From Candidatus Doudnabacteria bacterium RIFCSPHIGHO2_02_FULL_42_25 (GTDB taxonomy: Bacteria; Patescibacteriota; Doudnabacteria; UBA920; O2-02-FULL-48-8), in the NCBI GenBank assembly GCA_001777665.1, contig MFEQ01000006.1, forward strand, positions 24,309 through 88,308: 64,000 nucleotides of DNA, read 5' to 3'. The position numbers and the translations under genes are program-made. A model generated the notes under the pieces. That model saw only the letters and a list, made by a program, of their open reading frames with translations. It searched no databases and was not told where the DNA came from. Positions 9,708-64,000 of the stretch are shown piece by piece. Numbering within the stretch: the first letter of the stretch is position 1; each line of letters opens with the position of its first letter.

Positions 9708-9751
9708 ACGGAGTAAAATACTCCAATACTCTATAGTATTGGAGTAAATTG

Positions 9752-11233
9752 CTAAACATATCCCGGAAAGAAATCACTTTTGATATGTCTCTTGGATACA
9801 CCCATTGATTTTAACAGCTTCTCGAATGCAACAACCATGCCTCGCGGCCCTGAGACATAAAAGGTCCGATCGGACCAAATAGGTAATTCTGCTTCTAATC
9901 GCTTACGGTCAAGTAATCCATCACGATCAGTGACGACATAGATAATTTTAATTCCAAGCTTATTTGCAGCCTCTGACAAAATATCTTTATATGCAATTTC
10001 GCTCTCTGTCTTCACTGAATAGAATAAGACAATATCTCTTTTTTCTTTTTTATCTATGAGGTACTTCACCATACTCCGAAACGGGGTAATACCTATTCCA
10101 CCTGCGATAAATACTAATTTTTTAGTTGTATCTTTGGGTAGTGTAAAATCTCCGGCCAATTGTCCAGCGAGGACGGTTTCACCTGCATTAAGTGACGTTA
10201 GGGTTTGCTTAAAAGTACTGGGTTTATCATAAAATTTAATTCCTAAATCGATATGATCCTCTGTCGGTGATGATGCAATGGTGAAATAACGCCGGTTTCC
10301 TCGCAAATCATCTTTTTTGGTTTTCAAAGTCCATTCTAAATACTGACCGGGTTGGAAATTAATTTTTCGATTTGGAGTAAATTCAAACCCAAATGTCGCT
10401 GGAGCGATTTCTTTTTTTTCTTTCAGCGTCATTTTATATCTTCCCTTGTCAGAAACTAAAAACGAGAAAATGTTTCCTAAGACTAGAGCTAACTCTGGAC
10501 TAGAATACAATGGGCCTATGATAAAATTGGTTCCAGCAATAAACCCAACTATGGCTCCATAAGTAATTCGAAGTTTTCTGTTCGGGGGTGTAGTCAGCGG
10601 TTCGGTTAACATCACAAATGCAAAGTACAGTGTCGAGGAATTGATTAAGGTGCTTTTTATTGCCGACCAAGAATTGGCACCATCGGGAAGAGAAAAAACT
10701 AAACGAATCAAATAGACTATCAAAAAAGATATAACTAAATCAAAATGCTGGAGTTTCCGAGCAATCAGCAATCCTCCGACTATGACAAACGGAACTAAAT
10801 AGATATTGCCGACCCACCAACTAGCACCTTGCTGGATAACTAATAGCGTGGCAATTACAGCAATCGCAGCTGGATTGAATATGTGCTTCCCACGAAAATT
10901 AATAATGTATTTCGCGGCTTGAGAAAAAACAGCGGCCAAAACTACGAACAGCAAATCAGCCCCTGGCGTAATAATCAGAGTCAAAATCGCTGCAGTGATA
11001 TATGCAGATTCATTATTCGTGGGTACTCGAAATATTTTCGAAAAAATCCAGTTTGTAACCAAACAAACGGCAAATAAAATTAGCGACGTTTGAATAATAT
11101 CTAAAGTATCATACGGCACCCAACCAAAAAATGAAAAAATAATCGCTAAGCTGATCAATATAAGCAAAAAGTACAGCATGGCTCTGTACATAGTAATCTT
11201 ATTCAAAAAGCTATCTATGTATGGAACGGTCAT
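9752..11233 (-). CDS. Membrane-bound oxidoreductase: polytopic N-terminal domain fused to FNR-like FAD/NAD(P)-binding domain
   Basis: C-terminal RYFTIASSP (RxYS FAD motif) and GGIGITPFRSM (NAD-binding). About 260-aa hydrophobic N-terminal half. Confidence 0.5.
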   Translation of the reverse strand: MTVPYIDSFLNKITMYRAMLYFLLILISLAIIFSFFGWVPYDTLDIIQTSLILFAVCLVTNWIFSKIFRVPTNNESAYITAAILTLIITPGADLLFVVLAAVFSQAAKYIINFRGKHIFNPAAIAVIATLLVIQQGASWWVGNIYLVPFVIVGGLLIARKLQHFDLVISFLIVYLIRLVFSLPDGANSWSAIKSTLINSSTLYFAFVMLTEPLTTPPNRKLRITYGAIVGFIAGTNFIIGPLYSSPELALVLGNIFSFLVSDKGRYKMTLKEKKEIAPATFGFEFTPNRKINFQPGQYLEWTLKTKKDDLRGNRRYFTIASSPTEDHIDLGIKFYDKPSTFKQTLTSLNAGETVLAGQLAGDFTLPKDTTKKLVFIAGGIGITPFRSMVKYLIDKKEKRDIVLFYSVKTESEIAYKDILSEAANKLGIKIIYVVTDRDGLLDRKRLEAELPIWSDRTFYVSGPRGMVVAFEKLLKSMGVSKRHIKSDFFPGYV

Positions 11234-11888: not shown

Positions 11889-11909
11889 AGGGTTATTATA
11901 GCTTAACTC

Positions 11910-11938
11910 TTGACAAAATAGCCAAAAAGGAGTACAGT
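11910..11938 (+). promoter_or_regulatory. Sigma70-like promoter of GC-rich island 1 (TTGACA-17-TACAGT)
   Basis: TTGACA at 11910-11915, 17-nt spacer, TACAGT at 11933-11938. Followed by AAGGAGG at 11950-11956. Confidence 0.55.
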
Positions 11939-11965
11939 AATTTGTTCTTAAGGAGGAATAGCGCG

Positions 11966-12169
11966 ATGACCAAGAACCATCGAGACGGCGAAAAGTTCGG
12001 GGGTAATCACACTACCCTTCTAGATTTGGCCGTGACGATGGTAGACATCGCGGCCAAGTACTCTGAAGTAAAAACTATTAGTCCGGGCATGCTTCAGGTA
12101 AACCCCAACAAATCCGGCGGATCCCAGCGTGTGAAATTCGCTTGGATGAAGGGGGGGGGCTTCTTATGA
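11966..12169 (+). CDS. GC-rich island 1, ORF1 (67 aa, MTKNHRDGEKFGGNHTTLLDL...), unknown function
   Basis: ATG 8 nt after AAGGAGG. GC-rich codon usage unlike the host. Stop overlaps the next ATG (ttATGA). Confidence 0.5.
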   Translation: MTKNHRDGEKFGGNHTTLLDLAVTMVDIAAKYSEVKTISPGMLQVNPNKSGGSQRVKFAWMKGGGFL

Positions 12170-12312
12170 CCGTTCGGCAAAACCGATCGGTCCAGGAAGT
12201 TCGAGTCTACACGTCGGACACTCAGACGACCATGGTCGCGCTAGCAAGAGCCGCTCGAGACCGAGATATTCCCATCGGGTTTCTGAAGAAGGATAAGACG
12301 CAAACCTACTAG
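12166..12312 (+). CDS. GC-rich island 1, ORF2 (48 aa, MTVRQNRSVQEVRVYTSDTQTTMVALARAARDRDIPIGFLKKDKTQTY), translationally coupled
   Basis: ATGA start/stop overlap with ORF1. Not in ORF track (<60 aa). Confidence 0.45.
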   Translation: MTVRQNRSVQEVRVYTSDTQTTMVALARAARDRDIPIGFLKKDKTQTY

Positions 12313-12329
12313 GCTTGGAGGATACGCAG

Positions 12330-12791
12330 ATGGCAGTCAACGCAATGGGAGCCTCGGCGGTTGCCGAGTTGCTGGGTGACCTGACAGATCGGACGAAGTA
12401 CACTGAGGGGGTCCTGAAAGGGATGCTCGGTGTCATCCGAAACGAAGAGCTGCATCACACGACGATCATCGGCAAGATCGGAATCGTGCCGCTGTCGCTT
12501 GAGCAGCTCAACAAGCTCAAGTACGTGGACGAGGCCAACCAGAAGACGGCATTCGGTTCTGACATCGCCACGGCCATCCGGGCTGAAATGACGCGACGGA
12601 CGAGCATCAAGATCGAATTCGAGTCCCTCTTCCGGACGCTCTACGCCGGCGCAGAGTACGGACCCGAGAAAGTGATGGACGCAATCCAGCGTTACGAGGA
12701 GGCCATGCGCTCGAGCTCGACCTCGTTCGCTCCTCCCCCGCCGGTTCCAACGACGGATAGCAACGACGGCTTCGCGGCACGGACGCACTAA
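12330..12791 (+). CDS. GC-rich island 1, ORF3 (153 aa, MAVNAMGASAVAELLGDL...APPPPVPTTDSNDGFAARTH), unknown function
   Basis: GGAGGA at 12317-12322 precedes ATG 12330. ORF track offers TTG 12315. Pro-rich C-terminal tail. Confidence 0.5.
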   Translation: MAVNAMGASAVAELLGDLTDRTKYTEGVLKGMLGVIRNEELHHTTIIGKIGIVPLSLEQLNKLKYVDEANQKTAFGSDIATAIRAEMTRRTSIKIEFESLFRTLYAGAEYGPEKVMDAIQRYEEAMRSSSTSFAPPPPVPTTDSNDGFAARTH

Positions 12792-12814
12792 TCACCCGCG
12801 TCGTCAGGACGCAC

Positions 12815-12856
12815 AAACGGCGAGCCCAACACTGGGCCCGCCGTTTTTCTTTTGTT
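12815..12856 (+). terminator. Intrinsic terminator of island 1
   Basis: aaacggcgagcccaacactgggcccgccgtttttctttt. Confidence 0.65.
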
Positions 12857-12877: not shown

Positions 12878-12909
12878 TTACCTAGTTGCCCATATGGGCA
12901 ACTAGGTAA
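12878..12909. repeat. Perfect 32-bp palindrome ttACCTAGTTGCCCATATGGGCAACTAGGTaa (CATATG-core palindrome family, copy 1)
   Basis: Identical 28-bp core at 49787-49814 and 63554-63581. Variants at 43124-43157 and 62962-62989. Confidence 0.9.
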
Positions 12910-12925
12910 TCTCTTTTTTTACTTG

Positions 12926-12957
12926 CCTCTAATTTCAGCGATCGCTGAAATTAGAGG
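12926..12957. repeat. Perfect 32-bp palindrome cctctaatttcaGCGATCGCtgaaattagagg, immediately 3' of the dnaX stop
   Basis: Self-complementary. Same GCGATCGC core as the palindrome at 43164-43195 and the direct repeats at 56335/57514. Confidence 0.85.
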
Positions 12958-12959
12958 AA

Positions 12960-14444
12960 CTAGTTCTCTACTTCCCCGCCCATAATTTTGAGGGCGGACT
13001 CCACTAACTCATCTTTTTGCTCCACTTGAGCCTCACCTTTTTGTAACGTAGGTTTTACCATCAGTTTCAGTCCCGTCACTTCTTCGATTACTTGATCGAC
13101 AACGATTCGATTCTTACGCGCTTCGATCGCATCTTTATGAAATTTATATGGAAATATCACTACCAGTTCTTTTCCTTCTATAGAAATAGGCTGAGCTAGT
13201 TTTAAACTCGAGATAAGCGAGTGGTTATATTCTTTTAGTTTTTCCAGAATCTGCGGCCAGTGAGCTTGGACTTTGGCAAATAACTCCCCCTCGCCCTCTC
13301 TTACATTAAGAGGGGGTTCCTCTGCTGCTTCATCCCCCCTTAATATAAGGGGGGATTGAGGGGGGTTATTCTCCTCGGTCGCCTCTACTGCGGCTAATTC
13401 AAGTGGCAGACTCTGGATCGATGACCATTTGATTTCACCTTCAGCTTTCTGGAATATCTGAATGATCTGCATAATTCTTGGCAATTCCAAAGCTTGGGCT
13501 TGATCCTTCATCTTCTGTGAAATTTCTTCGGTATAACCAAAATCAGAAGTTGTCCCCACTTTCGTCAACAATATTTTTCGCAAATACTCTAAAAAATCTT
13601 TTTCAAATTGATATAAATCTTTGCCCCCATAAGTCAGATCTGAAATAAAACTCACCGCTTCTTGGGTTTGATTTTCTACGAGCAGATCTAGGAATTTACT
13701 CAAAGTCTTCACGCCTGTTAAACCGAGGACTGTTTCGACTAATTCTTCAGTAATCTCGCCTTCGGCGTAATTCATAACTTGATCGAGTAGTGATAGCCCA
13801 TCTCGAAAACTGCCATCCGCAGCAGTCGCGATTTCCATCAGGGCTCCTTCACTAACTTTGATCTGATTATCGGAAGCCACATATGCGAGATGCTTGCTTA
13901 AATCTGCAATGCCGACTTTTTTAAAATCAAATCGTTGCGTCCGCGAAATAATCGTGGCTGGAACTTTATGAATTTCGGTCGTGGCCAAAATAAATACGGC
14001 ATGACTCGGTGGTTCTTCCAAAGTCTTAAGTAATGCATTAAAAGCGCCTTTTGAAAGCATGTGCACTTCATCGACAATAATCACTTTATATGTGGCCTTA
14101 GTTGGGGCAAATTGCAAATGATCGATCAATTCTCGAATATTATCCACGCCAGTGTGCGACGCCGCATCTATTTCCAGCAAATCTAAACTGGTATTCTCTA
14201 GAAATGGTTTACAGATCTCGCATTCGTTGCAGGGTTCCGAGCCTGTTCTATTCTGACAATTAATAGCCCGCGCAAAAATCCGAGCTAGCGTCGTTTTCCC
14301 GACCCCTCTGGGTCCGGTGAATAAATAAGCGTGGCCCACGCGATTATTGGCGACCGCATTGGCGAGCGTGGTTTTGATGTGTTCCTGATTGACCACGGAA
14401 CCGAAATTCAGTGGCCGATATTTTCTATACAATACTAAGTTCAT
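12960..14444 (-). CDS. dnaX: DNA polymerase III subunit gamma/tau
   Basis: Walker A GPRGVGKTT, clamp-loader motifs. Contains an in-frame GC-rich insertion (about 13290-13375) encoding EENNPPQSPLILRGDEAAEEPPLNVREGEGE. Confidence 0.85.
   Translation of the reverse strand: MNLVLYRKYRPLNFGSVVNQEHIKTTLANAVANNRVGHAYLFTGPRGVGKTTLARIFARAINCQNRTGSEPCNECEICKPFLENTSLDLLEIDAASHTGVDNIRELIDHLQFAPTKATYKVIIVDEVHMLSKGAFNALLKTLEEPPSHAVFILATTEIHKVPATIISRTQRFDFKKVGIADLSKHLAYVASDNQIKVSEGALMEIATAADGSFRDGLSLLDQVMNYAEGEITEELVETVLGLTGVKTLSKFLDLLVENQTQEAVSFISDLTYGGKDLYQFEKDFLEYLRKILLTKVGTTSDFGYTEEISQKMKDQAQALELPRIMQIIQIFQKAEGEIKWSSIQSLPLELAAVEATEENNPPQSPLILRGDEAAEEPPLNVREGEGELFAKVQAHWPQILEKLKEYNHSLISSLKLAQPISIEGKELVVIFPYKFHKDAIEARKNRIVVDQVIEEVTGLKLMVKPTLQKGEAQVEQKDELVESALKIMGGEVEN
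13334..13374. repeat. Copy of the ccccttaatataagggg-ggttag-gaggggttat element embedded in-frame in dnaX
   Basis: ccccccttaatataaggggggattgaggggggttattctcc. Compare 60616-60669 and 21040-21085 (reverse orientation). Confidence 0.65.
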
Positions 14445-16537: not shown

Positions 16538-16638
16538 TTTAACCATTTCGAGGGCCGGTCAATTGACCGGTTAGCGAGAAATCGATTTTCCGAGAGTGAC
16601 TCCTCTTAGGAGGGATCTCTCACTTCGTTCGAGATGGG
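16538..16638 (+). repeat. Structured repeat family ccatttcga...GGAGGGATCTCTCACTTCGTTCGAGATGG, copy A
   Basis: Shares aaccatttcga, an internal GC hairpin (ggccggtcaattgaccgg), gagaaatcg and a 29-nt 3' block with copies at 19844-19919 and 27001-27082. 5' ccatttcga pairs with 3' tcgagatgg (one G-U pair). Confidence 0.7.
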
Positions 16639-19843: not shown

Positions 19844-19919
19844 TAACCATTTCGACCCCGGACTTGATCCGGGGGAGAAATCGCTCTTGGGAGGGATCTC
19901 TCTCTTCGTTCGAGATGGG
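19844..19919 (+). repeat. ccatttcga...GGAGGGATCTCTCTCTTCGTTCGAGATGG element, copy B
   Basis: ttttaaccatttcga + hairpin ccccggacttgatccgggg + gagaaatcg + gggagggatctctctcttcgttcgagatggg. Confidence 0.7.
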
Positions 19920-21017: not shown

Positions 21018-21039
21018 CTGCAGTCTAAGGCTTAGGATA

Positions 21040-21085
21040 TAACCCCTCCTAACCTCCCCTTATATTAAGGGGAGGAACAACTGCA
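21040..21085 (-). repeat. gcagttgttcctccccttaatataaggggaggttaggaggggttat element (reverse orientation) in the 5' leader of paralog 2
   Basis: Reverse complement is about 95% identical over about 46 nt to 60616-60669. Confidence 0.75.
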
Positions 21086-22589: not shown

Positions 22590-22600
22590 AATTAGTTATT

Positions 22601-22628
22601 TGCTACCATACTTGGTAGTATGGTAGCA
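22601..22628. promoter_or_regulatory. Palindromic operator-like site TGCTACCATACT-tggt-AGTATGGTAGCA upstream of the TrpR-like gene
   Basis: Perfect 12-bp inverted arms, 4-bp spacer, about 29 nt upstream of ATG 22657. Second degenerate copy at 23186-23213 upstream of cysS. Confidence 0.5.
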
Positions 22629-22656
22629 TTTTGCTCAAGTATTAAAAGCTAAACAA

Positions 22657-23175: not shown

Positions 23176-23185
23176 TTTAGCAATT

Positions 23186-23213
23186 TGCTACCATACTTGG
23201 TAGTATGAGAGCA
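23186..23213. promoter_or_regulatory. Second (degenerate) copy of the TGCTACCATACT palindrome, upstream of cysS
   Basis: tgctaccatacttggtagtatgagagca; two mismatches in the right arm. Confidence 0.4.
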
Positions 23214-26401: not shown

Positions 26402-26508
26402 CGCTCGGAATAAAATTTTTATGCACCGGCCATAAAATTCTGCTGAATTTTTGGCCTACGCGCTCGGTCCGTCGACCTGCGCGAGTTGCTAAAAATTTAT
26501 TCCTCGCT
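26402..26508 (+). ncRNA. Candidate structured RNA (about 105 nt), copy 1 of a two-copy family with compensatory changes
   Basis: Conserved core accggccRtaaaattctgctgaattttYggcctacgcgctcggtccgtcgacctgcgcgagtt. Closing stems differ between copies but are each self-complementary. A/G and T/C substitutions maintain a base pair in the ggccRtaaaattc hairpin. Confidence 0.45.
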
Positions 26509-27000: not shown

Positions 27001-27082
27001 TACCACTTCGAACGATTAGTGAGAAGTCGCTCCTACAAGGGTTAGCGCTTGGAGGAGGGATCTCTCACTTCGTTCGAGATGG
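27001..27082 (+). repeat. ccacttcga...GGAGGAGGGATCTCTCACTTCGTTCGAGATGG element, copy C
   Basis: Shares 5' accaYttcga, gagaaRtcg and the 29-nt 3' block with copies A and B. Confidence 0.65.
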
Positions 27083-27139
27083 TAAAACGCTTTCGCTGGG
27101 ATGGTAAAAAAAGTCATGATTTAGTAGAATATGTAGGCT

Positions 27140-27765: not shown

Positions 27766-27808
27766 AAAAAGGAGGCCACCGCGAGCATGCTCGCGGTGGC
27801 CTTTTTGC
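27766..27808. terminator. Bidirectional terminator (aaaaaggaggccaccgcgagcatgctcgcggtggccttttt)
   Basis: Perfect 14-bp GC stem flanked by A-run and T-run. Confidence 0.75.
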
Positions 27809-27864
27809 GTCAGTTAAACCTACCCGACATTGGTAGGTGCCCATTATAACCGACGCGGCGGGAC

Positions 27865-28077
27865 CTATCCGTGAATACGTCTCAGGAGCTGGTGCCGGCT
27901 CTCTGCAGTAGCGAGTTGGTTCGAAGCGAACCGACGCGCCTGTTGAACCAACTCCTTCATCGCAGGATCCTGGCTTTCCAGGATGACCTGGGGATCGAGC
28001 TTCCTTTCACGGATGTAAGTTTCAAACTGCTGCTGCTCGAACTCTTCGAGTGGCAGGATGTGGCGGGATTCAGGCAC
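27865..28077 (-). CDS. GC-rich small ORF (70 aa, MPESRHILPLEEFEQQQFETYIRERKLDPQ...), unknown; sits where rpmA would be expected downstream of rplU
   Basis: GTG start 7 nt after AAGGAGG on the minus strand. GC-rich island about 27860-28120. Confidence 0.4.
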   Translation of the reverse strand: MPESRHILPLEEFEQQQFETYIRERKLDPQVILESQDPAMKELVQQARRFASNQLATAESRHQLLRRIHG

Positions 28078-28159
28078 GGGGCTACCTCCTTGGGGAAGCG
28101 GTCGGCGAACTTAACAGCCAAAAGCAAATCACAAAAAGCTTGTGACCTAGTTTCGGATT

Positions 28160-28468
28160 TTAAGCGATGCTTTGGATTTCGACCACTGTTTGTTGCTGGC
28201 GGTGCCCAGTTTTTCTTCGGTACCGAGACTTCGCTCGATATTTAAACACCACTAATTTTTCACCTTTTTGTTGCTTCAAAACTTTGCCAGTAACCTTAGC
28301 TCCTGACAAATATGGTTTACCTAAATTAACGCTATCATCAGACGCGACTAAAAGAACCTTATCAAAGGTCACAGTGTCGCCTTCTTGGGCGGTGAGTTTT
28401 TCGATTATGAGTTTGTCCTTTGGGGAGACCAGATACTGCTTCCCGCCGGTTTCAATTACTGCTTGCAT
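28160..28468 (-). CDS. rplU: 50S ribosomal protein L21
   Basis: MQAVIETGGKQYLV... matches the L21 N-terminus. Start moved to the internal ATG at 28468. Confidence 0.8.
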   Translation of the reverse strand: MQAVIETGGKQYLVSPKDKLIIEKLTAQEGDTVTFDKVLLVASDDSVNLGKPYLSGAKVTGKVLKQQKGEKLVVFKYRAKSRYRRKTGHRQQQTVVEIQSIA

Positions 28469-42707: not shown

Positions 42708-42736
42708 TTGACAAATTGCCAAGAAGAATGTATTAT
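42708..42736 (+). promoter_or_regulatory. Sigma70-like promoter of GC island (TTGACA-17-TATTAT)
   Basis: TTGACA 42708-42713, TATTAT 42731-42736, GGAGG 42760-42764, ATG 42771. Confidence 0.55.
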
Positions 42737-42770
42737 ATTGTGTTCTACTGCTGAAAATTGGAGGATTTTC

Positions 42771-43031
42771 ATGAGACGAAAAGGAAAAAACCACATCTGT
42801 GAAGACCACAGTTCGTGGTTGAGTATGCGGAACACGGGGGTCTGTCACGTCGAGTTACGTGGATCCAGGGCCTACCTCAGCGTGGCCTACTACAACGGCA
42901 CGACGTGGCTGCCTAAATTGGTCAGAATCCACTTCTGCCCTTTCTGCGCTAAACCTCTGGGGAAGAGGAAGGTGCGCAAGCTCCGCAAGACAGGGACGAA
43001 GTCGCTTCACTCCCGCCCCCTCTCGAAGTAG
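42771..43031 (+). CDS. GC-rich small ORF (86 aa), putative zinc-ribbon protein (HICEDH...CPFC)
   Basis: ORF with SD. Cys/His pairs; basic C-terminal tail KRKVRKLRKTGTK. Confidence 0.45.
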   Translation: MRRKGKNHICEDHSSWLSMRNTGVCHVELRGSRAYLSVAYYNGTTWLPKLVRIHFCPFCAKPLGKRKVRKLRKTGTKSLHSRPLSK

Positions 43032-43050
43032 TATCCACTCTACTTCGCTG

Positions 43051-43092
43051 CCGAAATCGCGTTGGGCGCCAGCTCGACGCGATTTTTCTTTT
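43051..43092 (+). terminator. Intrinsic terminator of the 42771 island
   Basis: gaaatcgcg...cgcgatttttctttt. Confidence 0.6.
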
Positions 43093-43123: not shown

Positions 43124-43157
43124 GTACCTATTTGCCCCATATGGGACAAATAGGTAC
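43124..43157. repeat. 34-bp near-perfect palindrome gtacctatttgccccATATGggacaaataggtac (variant of CATATG-core family)
   Basis: One mismatch. Same architecture: ACCTA..TTGCCC-CATATG-GGGCAA..TAGGT. Confidence 0.8.
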
Positions 43158-43163
43158 CCCTGC

Positions 43164-43195
43164 AACATAAAAGGTGCGATCGCACCTTTTATGTT
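43164..43195. repeat. Perfect 32-bp palindrome aacataaaaggtGCGATCGCaccttttatgtt
   Basis: Self-complementary. Paired with the preceding palindrome exactly as at 12878/12926. Confidence 0.85.
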
Positions 43196-43211
43196 CACTT
43201 CTTATTTTATT

Positions 43212-56370: not shown

Positions 56371-56960
56371 ATTCTTTTTACAGCTTCAATGAACATTTTG
56401 TTAGTATCGTCAGATACAATTATGAGCCCTCGCACTATTCTTCTGTATGCAGGATCATCGGATTGGCCTCTTCCTCTCGTTATATGATCGAAGCCTCCTA
56501 CTGCAGTCACTAAAATCCAAGGATTGTGCTCTTCCACATCAGGTAATTCATGCCGGTGCTCATTGAAATCCCGACGGTATTCATCTAACCGTAACTGCAG
56601 TAATTTATCCCAATCGATCAAGAATTTCTCCTCAATCCCGAAAGATTTTAAAATTTCTTTGTATGCAGTGAGAATTCCATTTTTTACTTCTTTCAAATAC
56701 TCCCTAAAAAAATCTTCGTGAAAATTAATCAGTGTTTCAGTTTGAAAATAGACTAAACAGAGCGCCGTGACTACTAATTCATTAAAGATCCGATCTTGTT
56801 CAGTTTGGGATAACGAGTCAAAATTAATTTCGCTTCTAAAATCTATATTTCGAAATAAGTCAAAAGCTGACTTTATTGCCTTCATAGTAATGGCCACAGT
56901 ATCTTTTGCCGAATTTGGAGGACCGTAAACAAGTTTTCTGAACATAAAATAGAGTCTCAC
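56367..56960 (-). CDS. Hypothetical protein (197 aa) with possible HEPN-like Rx4H motif (RRDFNEH)
   Basis: ORF. The motif call is weak pattern-matching only. Confidence 0.3.
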   Translation of the reverse strand: MRLYFMFRKLVYGPPNSAKDTVAITMKAIKSAFDLFRNIDFRSEINFDSLSQTEQDRIFNELVVTALCLVYFQTETLINFHEDFFREYLKEVKNGILTAYKEILKSFGIEEKFLIDWDKLLQLRLDEYRRDFNEHRHELPDVEEHNPWILVTAVGGFDHITRGRGQSDDPAYRRIVRGLIIVSDDTNKMFIEAVKRI

Positions 56961-56965
56961 TACGC

Positions 56966-57514
56966 CTAATTGTGCGATCGTGTATTTTGCGTAGAATCAA
57001 ACAGCATTCTGCCTTCTAGGATATTAACATTTAATTCTACTTGTAATTCTTTTAATAGCTCTTTAAATTCTGGTAGTAGCTCCCAAGGTCCGATAAAAAC
57101 ACTCTTTTGCAACATCATAAAGCCGTTTTGAATTAAAAATCGTCTTAAAAATTGTCTGGCTTTTTTCTTTTCTTCGGGGATATCAAACATAACTAGAGTT
57201 GAAAATCCGTTATTCTTTGCCCTTCTCAACTTTCTTGAGTATATATATTTCAAACTCCTTGCCCGCCCTAAATTCGTTATCTGATAGTATGTTTTTCTTT
57301 CTTTTTTGATTTTTTTTACTAAGCCATCTCTGTCTAGTTCCCAAAAAGCTCTGGAAATTTTATAGCGATCATAATATTTAAGCCTTTTGATATATTGATA
57401 CTTGCCTTCAAAAGGATAAGGAATCAGCTCCCCCATATCGCGCAAAAACCAAAGCAATTCTCCAGTAATTGTCTTTAGACGCTTCTTGATTTTTCTTTTG
57501 GTAGTACGTTTCAT
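56966..57514 (-). CDS. wHTH + Cas2-like (VapD/Cas2 fold) protein, paralog A
   Basis: C-terminal half LVMFDIPEEKKKARQFLRRFLIQNGFMMLQKSVFIGPWE matches the Cas2 signature (V.YD.s....R..l...L...G.r.Q.SVF). Basic N-terminal domain. Paralog at 62995-63546. Confidence 0.4.
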   Translation of the reverse strand: MKRTTKRKIKKRLKTITGELLWFLRDMGELIPYPFEGKYQYIKRLKYYDRYKISRAFWELDRDGLVKKIKKERKTYYQITNLGRARSLKYIYSRKLRRAKNNGFSTLVMFDIPEEKKKARQFLRRFLIQNGFMMLQKSVFIGPWELLPEFKELLKELQVELNVNILEGRMLFDSTQNTRSHN

Positions 57515-57549
57515 ACGTATTTTACGCGATCGCGCATTTTACGTATTAT
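57514..57549 (+). repeat. 36-bp direct repeat (right copy) tacgtattttacGCGATCGCgcattttacgtattat
   Basis: See 56335-56370. Confidence 0.8.
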
Positions 57550-57556
57550 AGCAAAT

Positions 57557-60615: not shown

Positions 60616-60669
60616 GCAGTTGTTCCTCCCCTTAATATAAGGGGAGGTTAGGAGGGGTTATTCATAAGG
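60616..60669 (+). repeat. gcagttgttcctccccttaatataaggggaggttaggaggggttattc element in the 5' leader of the BNR-repeat gene
   Basis: See 21040-21085 and 13334-13374. Confidence 0.75.
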
Positions 60670-61451: not shown

Positions 61452-61479
61452 GGATTAATTATACCATTTCACCCCAGTA

Positions 61480-61509
61480 TTGACAAAAACACCCAAAAAA
61501 CAGTATACT
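61480..61509 (+). promoter_or_regulatory. Sigma70-like promoter (TTGACA-18-TATACT) of GC island; followed by SD + 6-codon uORF (MQPLRS, 61545-61565) and an 11-bp-stem hairpin (61580-61631)
   Basis: TTGACA 61480-61485, TATACT 61504-61509, AAGGAGG 61533-61539, inverted repeat gcagaagagtg/cactcttctgc. Confidence 0.5.
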
Positions 61510-61650
61510 TATACGTTGCACATTTCGTGCACAAGGAGGATAAGATGCAACCTTTACGTAGTTAGATTTTGAACTCACTGCAGAAGAGTGCTTATAACTT
61601 CAGATAATCCTGTCTGATCCACTCTTCTGCTAACAGCAGAGGAGAGGGTC

Positions 61651-62265
61651 ATGATCAGGAACATCGCAGACGCGTCAGAACAGTACCACAACGCCGTCAA
61701 CGCCTGCCGCGAGGTCTTCGCGGCGGCCGAGCGCGAATTCGTAGAGCCGAAGGGCGTGAAAGCCCACATCGAGGAAGCGCGGCGGCTCTACGCGGAACTG
61801 GGTGACGAGGCGTCAGCCGTGAAAGAGGTGGACAATGCAAGGCAGTGGCTGATCGGGATCGCCGGGAAGTTCTTGCGCGGTGCGGTCGAGTTCTTCGGCG
61901 ACCGCATCTACGAGCTCTCCTACATGTCGCTCGACCGCGACATCGTCGAGAACATGCAGGCTAGGTTGCGCGAGTACGAGGAAGCAGTGCGCGTCGGCGA
62001 AGCCAGCAGCTTCGAGGTACGACTCACCGCATACAAAAAACTCGCGACCGTGGTCAACGGCGCGCGCACGGAGCAGCAGCGGCGCATCGAGCACCGCGAG
62101 AAGCTGGCGCAGGAACGCGCTGAACGGGAGCAACACGAACGTCGGCGGCGTCGGGAGGAAGAAGCCGAGGCCGATCGCGTTCGAGCGAAGCAGCAACAGG
62201 AGGCTGCTGAGGCTGCGGCGCGCGAGGAACGCGCGAAGCAGTTCGACGAGCTCTTCGGAGCTTAG
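61651..62265 (+). CDS. GC-rich island ORF (204 aa) with highly charged C-terminal helix (ERAEREQHERRRRREEEAEADRVRAKQQQEAAE)
   Basis: ATG 6 nt after GAGAGGG. GC-rich. Confidence 0.5.
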   Translation: MIRNIADASEQYHNAVNACREVFAAAEREFVEPKGVKAHIEEARRLYAELGDEASAVKEVDNARQWLIGIAGKFLRGAVEFFGDRIYELSYMSLDRDIVENMQARLREYEEAVRVGEASSFEVRLTAYKKLATVVNGARTEQQRRIEHREKLAQERAEREQHERRRRREEEAEADRVRAKQQQEAAEAAAREERAKQFDELFGA

Positions 62266-62267
62266 GG

Positions 62268-62308
62268 GGTCCCTAGGGGTGTGGCACACAGGTGCCCGCC
62301 CCTTTTTC
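62268..62308 (+). terminator. Intrinsic terminator
   Basis: GC hairpin ...ggcacacaggtgcccgcccctttttc. Confidence 0.55.
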
Positions 62309-62323
62309 ATTTCCAGGTTAGGG

Positions 62324-62352
62324 TTGACAGTGGCCTCAAAATCTTATATACT
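62324..62352 (+). promoter_or_regulatory. Sigma70-like promoter (TTGACA-17-TATACT) with about 170-nt structured leader
   Basis: TTGACA 62324-62329, TATACT 62347-62352. Leader hairpins gcggcaacttcgccgc and ccgctcgcgg. AGGAGG 62514-62519. Confidence 0.5.
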
Positions 62353-62525
62353 GTTAAGCTTTAAACGGAGAAAGTTTCGTTAGCCCTGTCTGCTAAGCGA
62401 AACGGGAAAAGCAACTCAAAAAGAGCGAACGCAAGATCATATCAAACAAGTAACTCTAATTGAATGCAGCTTCGCGGCAACTTCGCCGCAAGTTTACCCG
62501 TCCGCTCGCGGACAGGAGGTCAACC

Positions 62526-62888
62526 ATGCCTGACCCACAGGACATGGACCCCACGGTCGCTCAGTTCGCTGAGGACCTGAAGTACACCCAGTGCCACGCT
62601 GAGGTTCACTACCTCAGTGTGGATGGGACGCCCCGGATGCTACGGTTCCACCCGTGGACATCCGTACTTGTCGAAGTCTCTGAGGACTGCCTAAAGGTGG
62701 TCGAGAGATTCGATAAGCGCCCCGGGGAAACCTGGAGCGAGAAGACGACGGTGATCGAGCTGAATAAGCTCTTGATCGCCAAACTCTTCGACTGCGAGGG
62801 ATGTGAACGATGCGACGACAAAGGGTCGGGCGCATTGTGGACATTCTTGCAGGGGCAACGTTCTAGGAGTACTTGGGGGTACTGTTAG
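62526..62888 (+). CDS. GC-rich island ORF (120 aa, MPDPQDMDPTVAQFAEDL...CEGCERCDD), unknown; C-terminal Cys cluster
   Basis: ATG 6 nt after AGGAGG. ORF track gives upstream ATG 62460, which lacks an SD. Confidence 0.5.
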   Translation: MPDPQDMDPTVAQFAEDLKYTQCHAEVHYLSVDGTPRMLRFHPWTSVLVEVSEDCLKVVERFDKRPGETWSEKTTVIELNKLLIAKLFDCEGCERCDDKGSGALWTFLQGQRSRSTWGYC

Positions 62889-62896
62889 AATAAACA

Positions 62897-62932
62897 CCCG
62901 GGCGACACGCAGTGTCCCCGGGTTTTTCTTTT
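62897..62932 (+). terminator. Intrinsic terminator (cccgggcgacacgcagtgtccccggg + T-run)
   Basis: Near-perfect stem with 1-nt bulge, then tttttctttt. Confidence 0.7.
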
Positions 62933-62961: not shown

Positions 62962-62989
62962 TACCTAGTTGGCCATATGGGCATTTAGG
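62962..62989. repeat. Degenerate copy of the CATATG-core palindrome (acctagttgGccatatgggcaTTtaggt)
   Basis: Three substitutions relative to the perfect copies. Lies between the GC island and the Cas2-like gene. Confidence 0.7.
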
Positions 62990-62994
62990 TAAAG

Positions 62995-63546
62995 TCAGCC
63001 AAGTTTAAATCTTTTTATTAAATCGGCTTTTATATCTATTTCTTCAGCAGTTATTAATCGTACAAAAGGCCTTATCTCATAGATCTCTTTTAAAAAATCA
63101 ACTTCATCCTCACAAGGATAAGGACATGCCCAAAGACTTTTCTGGACGAGCTCAAAACCAATCTCCCCCAACTTCCTAGTAAACTCTTTTCGGTTATTAT
63201 TAAATTCGACTGGTATATCGTACGTTACTAATCGCCATTTTCTATCCCATTTTTTCTGTGGTTTAATTTTCATATCGTCAATTTTAAATTTCAACCATTT
63301 CTCCTTCCCTTTTTTCGTTAATTTAATAACGGTTTTATCTCCTTCCTGACCTATACTGACCATCCTTGAATTTTCTAAACCCTTAAAAGATCGATCTATT
63401 TGAGTCTTGCTATATTTCTTATATAAATCATACTGACGAAAAATTTCTGCCATACCTGGTGCCACTATGACCACTGCTAAAATCCCGACCTTGGACAGGA
63501 CGTATAAAATATCTTTAGCAATTTCCGAGCGTTTAGCCATACACAA
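62995..63546 (-). CDS. wHTH + Cas2-like protein, paralog B; bracketed by CATATG-core palindromes
   Basis: WRLVTYDIPVEFNNNRKEFTRKLGEIGFELVQKSLWACP matches the same signature as 56966-57514. Confidence 0.4.
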   Translation of the reverse strand: MCMAKRSEIAKDILYVLSKVGILAVVIVAPGMAEIFRQYDLYKKYSKTQIDRSFKGLENSRMVSIGQEGDKTVIKLTKKGKEKWLKFKIDDMKIKPQKKWDRKWRLVTYDIPVEFNNNRKEFTRKLGEIGFELVQKSLWACPYPCEDEVDFLKEIYEIRPFVRLITAEEIDIKADLIKRFKLG

Positions 63547-63553
63547 ATTCTAT

Positions 63554-63581
63554 ACCTAGTTGCCCATATGGGCAACTAGGT
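63554..63581. repeat. Perfect 28-bp palindrome ACCTAGTTGCCCATATGGGCAACTAGGT (copy 3), 8 nt upstream of the Cas2-like gene start
   Basis: Identical to copies 1 and 2. Confidence 0.9.
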
Positions 63582-63627
63582 TACGGGTGTACCCAGTTGT
63601 TCACTTATTAAAAAGACTTGTTCTTAA

Positions 63628-63700
63628 ACAAAAAACAGTGGATTTTTTTAATCGATCCTGCAACTACTTTGCGAAGTGTCGATTACAATCCACTGTTTTT
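63628..63700. repeat. Inverted repeat aaaaaacagtggat / atccactgtttttt with about 45-nt spacer in ORF-free terminal region
   Basis: 14-bp arms. Followed by hairpin atccgccagctggcggat (63774-63791). Confidence 0.45.
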
Positions 63701-64000
63701 TATCTCTTGAGATTTTCTAAACGTTTAATAGGCTTAACCTCAAGTAGTCTACAAAGAGTAAATATTCGCGTCAATCCGCCAGCTGGCGGATCAAAAAAAC
63801 AGTGTAACTAAAAGGGTTTTCTTTCGATGTGTGCAGAACTTGTGTGTAACACGTGAGTAATCTGTGATGAAGCAAACTCCGACGCTCCGGTCCGGAGTTG
63901 CTACCGCAACAAAAAAACCACCGTTAGGAGGTTTTTTTGATAAAGACCGGTGTGCTGCGATGAAACTTGGATTGCACTTACGAACTCCCCAAGCCTAGGA

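Follow-up and report, generated by a model that had tools for sequence, protein, structure and literature searches.

A long perfect palindrome bracketing a two-domain PaaX-like gene in a Doudnabacteria chromosome: a candidate operator with satellite copies at the ends of GC-rich cassettes

The 64,000-nucleotide stretch of Candidatus Doudnabacteria bacterium RIFCSPHIGHO2_02_FULL_42_25 analysed here (contig MFEQ01000006.1, positions 24,309 to 88,308; called the window below and numbered from its first letter) carries a perfect 28-nt palindrome, ACCTAGTTGCCCATATGGGCAACTAGGT, in three identical and two variant copies. Two of these bracket a gene for a small protein in which a winged helix is joined to a Cas2-like domain, here named mini-PaaX, and the upstream one overlaps the predicted promoter of that gene. 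Judged from the sequence, the balance tips slightly towards the view that the palindrome is what the neighbouring mini-PaaX protein recognises, and that this protein would repress its own gene through the promoter copy. The case is built on the positions of the copies, on the predicted fold of the protein and on homologous genes of the candidate phyla radiation (CPR; Patescibacteria), many of which are accompanied by palindromes of their own. To our knowledge, recognisable regulators are very few in CPR genomes, and hardly anything is known of how their genes are controlled.

The palindrome and its copies in the window

Exact copies of the 28-mer lie at 12880-12907, 49787-49814 and 63554-63581, just where a sequence-only reading made before this analysis had placed them. 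No match was found in 100 dinucleotide-preserving shuffles of the window, and chance would not be expected to produce any. At 62963-62990 there is a copy with three mismatches (that reading had recognised it, with the coordinates 62962-62989), and a palindrome scan added a fifth, of 34 nt, at 43124-43157, GTACCTATTTGCCCCATATGGGACAAATAGGTAC. Both divergent copies had been said to keep their dyad symmetry largely intact. This is right for the 43124 variant, in which 16 of the 17 arm pairs are retained, the centre is longer by two bases and a G-to-T change in one arm is mirrored by a C-to-A change in the other. It does not describe the 62963 copy well: none of its three changes is mirrored, and its single-stranded DNA hairpin is weak (-7.8 kcal/mol, compared with -13 to -14.6 kcal/mol for the perfect copies). 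When the five contexts are aligned, similarity ends at about 30 nt (T-ACCTAG...CTAGGT-A/T); an extended element around the palindrome in this genome, such as a miniature inverted-repeat transposable element, was rejected, as nothing is conserved past that point. The 31-mer at 49787 is identical to that of the promoter copy, and three copies in the window are the same over 28-31 nt. Successive copies are separated by 30244, 6663, 13176 and 591 nt, so that all five fall within 51 kb. The portion of the genome covered amounts to 73.5 kb, that is, the window and 9.5 kb of adjoining sequence (locus L002), and the latter contains no sixth copy. A degenerate form of the element can be written as ACCTANNTG-N10-12-CANNTAGGT; scans of genome, viral and metagenome contig collections with the pattern CCTANTTGNCCATATGGNCAANTAGG gave no match.

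Where do the copies sit? Four of them are found 9-31 nt past the terminator T-run of a plus-strand GC-rich cassette (A, B, C or D2; Table 1), each separating the cassette from the 3' end of a convergent gene, and two (62963 and 63554) flank the Cas2-like gene, the 62963 copy doing both. The earlier statement that every copy lies near a cassette terminator or a Cas2-like gene is thus borne out. The stronger form of it, that the copies are always 3' of GC-rich cassettes, holds for four of the five in this genome and does not extend generally to relatives. That no T-run follows the palindrome is likewise true of four copies, the 12880 copy being followed by TCTCTTTTTTT and flagged as terminator-like. 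A role of the non-operator copies as promoters was considered and discarded: at 12880, 43124, 49787 and 62963 there is no -10 box at the right distance on either strand.

The mini-PaaX protein and its promoter

What does the bracketed gene encode? Residues 98-172 of its product match PF20803 (PaaX_M, the central Cas2-like domain of PaaX) with an E-value of 8.8e-19 and 67.8 bits against a cut-off of 24, and no Pfam model matched residues 1-97. In the AlphaFold2 (AF2) model, which has a predicted local distance difference test score (pLDDT) of 84, this N-terminal part is predicted to be a winged helix-turn-helix (helix 4-18, a strand, helices 30-42 and 45-57, a beta-hairpin wing at 61-74 and helix 76-89), followed by a beta-alpha-beta-beta-alpha-beta Cas2-like fold. 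The best PDB match of the model in Foldseek is E. coli PaaX (8a39; E 8e-5), with Rv0674 and Cas2 structures next and many winged-helix proteins among the matches. The NCBIfam PaaX and cas2 models also match, each below its cut-off (TIGR02277 scores 34.9 bits against 264.55 and is covered at positions 49-150 of its 279). The protein stops at residue 181 and lacks the C-terminal helical (inducer-binding) domain of PaaX. The beta-1 aspartate of Cas2 is kept (FDIP aligns with MFDMP, and D108 is invariant), and the conserved columns of the family contain neither an HUH (His-hydrophobic-His) motif nor a catalytic tyrosine. An orthologue, P0003, is 68% identical.

Promoters were called here as consensus matches. 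The one assigned to the mini-PaaX gene has its -35 box inside the perfect copy at 63554, and its -10 box, TAGAAT (63552-63547), is 6 nt ahead of the ATG at 63540. The gene is probably leaderless, because no Shine-Dalgarno sequence precedes the start codon. Several minus-strand housekeeping genes adjoining the cassettes have TATAAT (in some cases with the extended TG) exactly 6 nt ahead of the ATG and also lack a Shine-Dalgarno sequence, a combination that suggests leaderless mRNAs. Sites of this type lie at 61452-61486, 49206-49226, 11889-11906 and 63541-63575; the cassette genes all have AGGAGG.

A second mini-PaaX paralogue in the window (Table 1) repeats the same logic of gene and motif with a different motif. 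Its motif, TACGTATTTTAYGCGATCGCGCATTTTACGTA, has one copy at the paralogue's own promoter (57514-57550) and another at 56335-56371. Only 7 nt separate the latter from the cassette F terminator, which is the layout seen for the cassettes followed by the 28-mer. In this genome all plus-strand cassette arrays end at the motif of one of the two mini-PaaX paralogues.

Homologues and their palindromes in other CPR genomes

The family is large, with 5,551 clusters at 50% identity (E-value of 0.001 or better). When one genome per species was searched with a degenerate pattern, more than 582 relatives came up, from which the best-scoring 80 loci were kept; these are not a random sample, and all of them are annotated as Patescibacteria or likely mis-binned. 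Palindrome counts refer to 82 loci with 86 homologous genes. Of these genes, 46 have a palindrome no more than 350 nt away whose arms measure 12 nt or longer, and 21 have one on both sides. Palindrome density is 1.11 per kb beside the genes and 0.15 per kb elsewhere in the same loci, an approximately sevenfold difference. The palindromes of the measured set are 26-52 nt long (the raw list holds one 66-nt case) and most are perfect. More than 20 loci have an upstream and a downstream copy of related sequence, this sequence differing between lineages, and other genomes usually have just the two flanking copies within +/-10 kb. At 20 of 28 loci a -10 box follows the upstream copy within 30 nt (nine are a perfect TATAAT), compared with 9 of 28 (one perfect) in the mirror window on the far side; at locus L006 the TATAAT comes directly after the palindrome. 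Indels beside the gene at L054 and L062, considered as cassettes, turned out to be ordinary genes.

Does the palindrome change together with the protein? Orthologues that are 53-60% identical to the window protein (L006, L007 and L010) keep the outer half-site ACCTAnnTG, and the centre varies: their half-sites ACCTATTTG, ACCCATTTG and ACCTAAATG enclose different centres of 10 or 12 nt, AACAATTGTT, TGCCATGGCA and ATCCGTACGGAA. Over the wider family the type of palindrome tracks the type of recognition helix, for example in the '..QI.NA..NLKR.KL' group with its GCATATGC centre. The centre reads C-NNNN-G in all 29 palindromes examined, and GCnnnnGC in 20 of them. The repeat, its positions, the protein fold and this family-wide co-occurrence and co-variation of protein and palindrome are all read from DNA and predicted protein sequences. 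The suggestion, already made for the 28-mer, that it is the recognition site of a dimeric protein gains comparative support here from the winged-helix/Cas2-fold neighbour, the lineage-specific palindromes of the homologues and the common outer half-site.

A candidate operator of mini-PaaX

How would the mini-PaaX protein use the palindrome? The Cas2-like domain probably dimerises it, and the dimer would probably read the pair of outer half-sites, ACCTA(G/T)TTG, each of 9 bp and spaced 19-21 bp (two helical turns) from centre to centre. Binding to duplex DNA would depend on ACCTAGTTG. The short C-NNNN-G centre is a feature of the whole family. Since the 63554 copy covers the -35 box and the spacer of the gene's own promoter, its occupancy would exclude RNA polymerase, and the result would be autorepression. 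There is a precedent for such an arrangement: E. coli PaaX, a winged-helix repressor, binds the inverted repeat TGATTC-N27-GAATCA and has been shown experimentally to repress its own promoter (Px) by steric hindrance (PMC9493321). The weaker copy past the stop codon could, as the downstream half of a bracket, allow looping or insulation of the gene, and a bracket of this kind recurs in a substantial fraction of the family. The copies at 12880, 43124 and 49787 would then be satellite sites, placed between the terminator of a strongly promoted cassette and the convergent 3' end of a housekeeping gene. Protein bound there might keep colliding transcription units apart, as a boundary or a roadblock, or might anchor a loop, or these may simply be neutral dispersed copies. 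Binding itself, repression and any function of the satellites are what we infer from this arrangement.

Several observations weigh against the operator reading. The satellite copies lie off promoters and have no adjoining -10 box, an unusual arrangement in a regulon. With lengths of 26-52 nt (and 66 nt in one case), the perfect palindromes exceed what the operator of a dimer needs. Where the copies at one locus differ, the change in one arm is mostly matched in the other (42 mirrored and 20 unmirrored changes, or about 36 and 19 when an out-of-register pair is left out). Such mirroring fits pairing as a hairpin or cruciform, which selection could favour, or symmetrisation by template switching, better than plain duplex reading; template switching during replication is a known mutational process that symmetrises quasi-palindromes. 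Identity of three copies over 28-31 nt looks like recent copying. One palindrome-gene-palindrome unit is duplicated: in a Moraniibacteriota metagenome-assembled genome a 788-nt segment, with 97% identity and unrelated flanks, is present on two contigs (L060 and L070), it ends just outside both palindromes, and one of the gene copies has a broken open reading frame (ORF). The contigs of one metagenome-assembled genome may derive from different strains. At the sites equivalent to cassettes B and C the loci L091, L092 and L093 have different cassettes without palindromes or no cassette. Finally, the copies in this genome are those of 73.5 kb.

GC-rich cassettes and genomic setting

The window is part of a Doudnabacteria chromosome with 41% GC and is 100% identical to a 345-kb contig of RIFCSPLOWO2_02_FULL (GCA_001780055.1). 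Its genes are mostly on the minus strand and include ftsW, mur genes, mraY, dnaX, dnaB, recR, cysS, PBP2, mreBCD, proS, holB and frr; the scanned window proteins yielded no integrase, Xer recombinase or transposase. On the strand opposite their neighbours stand six plus-strand units (A, B, C, D1, D2 and F), each with a TTGACA-N17/18 promoter, a -10-like hexamer, AGGAGG, a canonical terminator and one to three orphan ORFs. GC content at third codon positions (GC3) is 0.55-0.80 for seven scored ORFs from five of the units (F was not computed) and 0.31-0.42 for neighbouring genes. Apart from one weak DUF2103 match in cassette A, the cassette ORFs have no match in Pfam, PHROG or NCBIfam. A phage origin was considered and set aside, as the region of cassette A has no blastn match in a phage collection and the cassette proteins have no PHROG match. 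The terminators consist of a canonical hairpin and a TTTTTCTTTT-type T-run and are located upstream of the palindrome. D1 and D2 each have their own TTGACA-N17/18-TATACT promoter, a long 5' untranslated region (UTR) and a terminator, and the junction between them has no palindrome. A GC-rich cassette on the minus strand (27865-28077, in the region 27772-28170) has no copy of the palindrome and is provided with an ordinary bidirectional terminator instead. In its presumed promoter there is a lone half-site-like GACCTAGTTT (28144-28153); such an 8-mer is expected about twice per window by chance.

Table 1. Location of the palindrome copies, the mini-PaaX genes and the cassettes in the window
Feature	Position	Strand	Details
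Perfect copy, putative autoregulatory operator	63554..63581	.	Overlaps -35 and spacer of TTGCCC-17-TAGAAT; half-site-like ACCCAGTTG at 63591
Degenerate copy, 3 unmirrored mismatches	62963..62990	.	4 nt beyond mini-PaaX stop codon; 30 nt after D2 terminator
Perfect satellite copy	49787..49814	.	9 nt after cassette B terminator; 108 nt before convergent PBP2 stop codon
Variant satellite copy	43124..43157	.	Half-sites ACCTATTTG/CAAATAGGT, 12-nt centre; 31 nt after cassette C terminator
Perfect satellite copy	12880..12907	.	26 nt after cassette A terminator; T-run follows
Mini-PaaX gene, 181 aa	62995..63540	-	Pfam PaaX_M, AF2 model, Foldseek, NCBIfam
Promoter-like site of mini-PaaX gene	63547..63575	-	Consensus scan: -35 TTGCCC (63575-63570, within palindrome), 17-nt spacer
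Second mini-PaaX paralogue, 182 aa, 31% identical to first	56966..57514	-	cas2 model 37.9 bits, above cut-off
Cassette A	11910..12853	+	TTGACA-17-TACAGT promoter, AGGAGG, orphan ORFs of 67, 48 and 153 aa (GC3 0.62-0.78), intrinsic terminator
Cassette B	49227..49777	+	Promoter, Shine-Dalgarno, 149-aa orphan ORF (GC3 0.55), terminator
Cassette C	42708..43092	+	Promoter, Shine-Dalgarno, 86-aa orphan ORF (GC3 0.75), terminator
Cassette array D1 (204 aa, GC3 0.80) and D2 (120 aa, GC3 0.73)	61480..62932	+	
Cassette F and motif	55800..56371	+	Promoter, AAGGAGG, GTG, 104-aa ORF, terminator ending 56327
Second palindrome, centre GCGATCGC	43163-43196		Starts 5 nt after 43124 variant copy, before convergent stop codon
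Second palindrome, centre GCGATCGC	12924-12959		Between 12880 copy and dnaX stop codon

D1 has only 16 homologues (54-61% identical, about 200 aa), located beside holB in every context examined. Its orthologues occupy the same site in L006, L088, L089 and L090, where the neighbours in the array vary, and GC3 stays near 0.8 across Doudnabacteria at a locus GC of 41-51%. L089 and L090 have D1 and neither a mini-PaaX gene nor a palindrome. Do copies of the palindrome mark cassette boundaries in relatives, a point that had been put forward for checking? The answer is divided: cassettes in L091 and L092 have no palindrome, while L088 has a different one, TGCCACTTTTTWGTGCAGACAAAAAAGTGGCA, after the terminators of two cassette arrays. 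Because L088 carries TGCCACTTTTTWGTGCAGACAAAAAAGTGGCA there, the habit of placing a palindrome after a cassette is not confined to one sequence. What the sites have in common may be a convergent spacer instead of a cassette, in which case the association with cassettes would reflect a preference for convergent intergenic spacers.

A second palindrome family, GCCAC(C)TTTT...AAAAG(G)TGGC, is found in relatives at L088 5570-5860 and 12112-12449, L089 5990-6184 and L092 1-249, and in L088 and L089 it follows the terminators of GC-rich cassettes. It adjoins an element of about 150-220 nt that is conserved between L088 and L092 by BLAST, in opposite orientations relative to the palindrome; the flank in L089 resembles this element by eye only.

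The two GCGATCGC-centred palindromes of the window (34-36 nt; Table 1) differ from each other and are unrelated to the 28-mer. GCGATCGC occurs four times in the window, compared with 0.43 expected, always in such palindromes or in the paralogue-2 motifs, and the palindromes centred on it may be sites of further mini-PaaX paralogues. An identification of GCGATCGC with the cyanobacterial highly iterated palindrome HIP1 was dropped, the host being a member of Doudnabacteria.

Alternative explanations

Could the palindrome be a dispersing hairpin element, comparable to repetitive extragenic palindromic (REP) sequences and their REP-associated tyrosine transposases (RAYTs), which the bracketed Cas2-fold protein cleaves, copies or maintains? 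The satellites would then be recent insertions into permissive convergent spacers and their link with cassettes would be incidental. We regard this, the main rival, as unlikely, even if a good deal of the evidence is compatible with it. RAYT genes and REP elements are described as having the layout seen here, in which cognate palindromes flank a gene and more copies are found in extragenic DNA (PMC3116915, PMC3337134). The satellites are identical over 28-31 nt, and every copy outside the promoter sits between convergent genes. Two copies, those behind cassettes A and C, each form a stack with a GCGATCGC-centred palindrome, an arrangement that resembles a REP cluster of the bacterial interspersed mosaic element (BIME) type. 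The mirrored substitutions and stable single-stranded hairpins, the L060/L070 unit with its unrelated flanks and broken ORF, and the retention of D108 all fit as well. Against it stands the protein itself: it has no HUH/Y1 fold, and Pfam, NCBIfam and the fold search give only PaaX_M and Cas2. REP palindromes are reported to have GTAG or CGTC at one end (PMC3733652), whereas the palindrome ends here have neither tetranucleotide and TACCTAGTTGCCCATATGGGCAACTAGGTA contains neither. Copy number is low (five in 73.5 kb, and elsewhere usually the two flanking copies), promoter and upstream copy fall together at most loci, and orthologues conserve the half-site and vary the centre, as expected for the reading of DNA by a helix. 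L060 and L070, moreover, could be strain variants binned into one metagenome-assembled genome.

A broader variant of this idea can be entertained as a speculation to which we give little credence. The Cas2-fold protein and the hairpin-forming palindrome might together make up a new kind of structure-specific DNA system in CPR bacteria, either a non-HUH counterpart of REP/RAYT that spreads copies of its palindrome through the genome or a system for tagging, insulating or perhaps helping to capture self-expressed GC-rich orphan cassettes, with an evolutionary link to DNA handling by Cas2.

The sequence-only reading had also offered an attC-like recombination or attachment site, and this is not supported. 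Is the palindrome nevertheless a site-specific recombination site of the attC, dif or pdif type, through which cassettes and the mini-PaaX gene are inserted and excised, solo copies being attachment sites that are empty or occupied on one side? The 28-mer divides into a 6-bp centre and two 11-bp arms (11-6-11), copies are found at cassette 3' ends, and cassette content at the holB-mreB, PBP2 and aspS sites differs among relatives. Two copies bracket the gene, as they would after integration of a circle, and the L060/L070 unit is bounded at its palindromes. However, the scanned window proteins include no enzyme for the task, each cassette is driven by a promoter of its own and has a copy at its 3' side only, and the D1/D2 junction has none. 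L089 and L090 keep D1 in place without a palindrome, as L091 and L092 do their cassettes at the B and C sites. A symmetry that is perfect even in the centre gives no orientation, yet the palindrome-bearing cassettes share one direction, and recombination between two different sites predicts reciprocal asymmetric hybrids, whereas the flanking copies are each internally symmetric. Recombination thus appears very improbable to us.

A role as an RNA hairpin, which would terminate or stabilise the 3' ends of the convergent transcripts (dnaX, PBP2, the 83-aa gene and mini-PaaX) or back up the cassette terminators, has in its favour the stable stems, the terminator-like T-run of the 12880 copy and the location of copies in the would-be 3' UTR of convergent genes without obvious intrinsic terminators of their own, but is very doubtful given that four of the five copies lack a T-run on both strands, that each cassette already has a canonical terminator 9-31 nt upstream, that the promoter copy and most upstream copies of the family precede the -10 box and would not be transcribed, and that the lineage-specific sequence and its tracking of the neighbouring protein are left unexplained.

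Other elements nearby

Several further elements were observed in the window and its relatives. A gene of the Trp-repressor family (PF01371; 22657-23175, plus strand) is flanked by a palindrome of its own, TTGCTACCATACTTGGTAGTATGGTAGCA, with copies at 22600-22629 before the gene and at 23185-23213 before the next gene, cysS, and a diverged third copy at 9719-9746. In D1-type genes a conserved 5'-UTR hairpin, CTCTTCTGCTAACAGCAGAGGAG, pairs with the Shine-Dalgarno sequence (window 61625-61647; L088 9970-9994 and about 10775-10797). It is preceded in the window by an upstream ORF of six codons (MQPLRS) with its own AAGGAGG, and by sequence it resembles an element of translational control. The gap that separates mreB from the mini-PaaX gene holds a noncoding stretch with several hairpins and terminator-like stems (63582-64000, continuing into L002 9267-9540). 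It is about 82-90% conserved between L006 (9700-9790) and L090 (10660-10960) and, as judged by eye, also in the window, and is a candidate small RNA locus. Rfam at the gathering threshold returned only tRNA-Gln, with no family for the window part of this stretch.

Repeats are also present. One of them contains CCTCCCCTTAATATAAGGGGAGG, a hairpin that would pair a GGAGG, and is found at 60616-60661, 21039-21084 and 13336-13371; the two intergenic copies are 100% complementary and the third version lies within the dnaX reading frame. A 155-nt direct repeat with 97% identity (2518-2672 and 52355-52509) occupies gaps between minus-strand cell-wall genes. The arms of a 63-nt inverted repeat (26425-26487 and 55710-55772), 97% complementary, are located one just upstream of the cassette F promoter and the other just after dnaB. 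Finally, a 36-nt repeat, CTCTTAGGAGGGATCTCTCACTTCGTTCGAGATGGG, has three copies that are 89-100% identical (16603-16638, 19884-19919 and 27048-27083), two of which extend to 73 nt.

Significance

In the literature searched PaaX is not named together with Patescibacteria or Candidate Phyla Radiation, nor is it in the top-ranked CPR papers. The PaaX-like annotation of these proteins is already known from databases. What is new is that the protein has two domains, that long perfect palindromes bracket its gene and that satellite copies stand where cassettes end, and the layout of a gene with flanking palindromes is apparently undescribed. A large family of two-domain PaaX-like proteins, often with a lineage-specific candidate operator on both sides, offers ready pairs of protein and site for electrophoretic mobility shift assays (EMSA) or DNA affinity purification sequencing (DAP-seq), and such candidate pairs could serve genetic tools in CPR organisms. 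The family is also a natural series for the co-evolution of winged-helix specificity and site. The mirrored evolution of the palindromes, together with the Cas2-like domain, raises a further question: is the DNA read as a duplex or as an extruded hairpin? A separate puzzle is how D1 holds GC3 near 0.8 at one site across Doudnabacteria.

Comparison with known systems

PaaX of E. coli and Pseudomonas (8a39, 3l09), the phenylacetyl-CoA-responsive repressor of the paa operon, is alike in its N-terminal winged helix and Cas2-like middle domain (PaaX_M) and is the best structural match. PaaX binds an inverted repeat and represses its own promoter by occluding RNA polymerase; the candidate site here overlaps the -35 box and spacer of the predicted promoter. 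PaaX differs in having a C-terminal inducer-binding domain; the protein described here has 181 aa without that domain, and there are no paa genes. The operator of PaaX consists of hexamers 27 bp apart, whereas here 9-bp half-sites lie 10-12 bp apart in a perfect palindrome, the gene is bracketed by two copies and satellites are found outside promoters.

REP/RAYT systems (REPINs) share with the present one a single gene flanked by cognate palindromes, extragenic copies often in convergent spacers, the capacity to form hairpins and the pairing of each palindrome type with its own protein. In contrast to the HUH/Y1 fold, the GTAG/CGTC tag and the tens to hundreds of copies of REP/RAYT, there is here a Cas2-like fold, and there are five copies in the 73.5 kb covered and no such tag, the upstream copy doubling as the putative promoter operator. 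Integron attC sites are also palindromic elements 3' of small cassettes of foreign-looking composition. They are imperfect, 57-141 nt long, with R''/L''-L'/R' boxes and extrahelical bases, and their promoterless cassettes are arrayed by intI/attI; here a perfect 28-nt dyad accompanies self-expressed cassettes dispersed over 50 kb, with no integrase among the scanned proteins. The dif and pdif sites of Xer recombination are similar in that 28 bp can be parsed as 11-6-11 and modules are bounded by sites. The dif site is present once per chromosome, at the terminus, and pdif modules are plasmid-borne with alternating XerC/XerD orientation, unlike the five copies in 51 kb for which no Xer gene (in the window) or orientation signal was found.

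With Cas2 and CRISPR the system shares a C-terminal Cas2 domain with the beta-1 aspartate and a 28-nt palindromic repeat like many CRISPR repeats. In CRISPR arrays, direct repeats alternate regularly with spacers of about 25-50 bp; a regular array of this type, cas1 and a leader are all absent here, and the copies are mostly kilobases apart. The cassettes, for their part, recall the 'morons' of phages, which are self-contained units of promoter, gene and terminator with deviant composition, inserted between unrelated genes. Unlike morons, they stand in a chromosomal housekeeping context without phage genes or PHROG matches, and D1 is conserved in place across Doudnabacteria.

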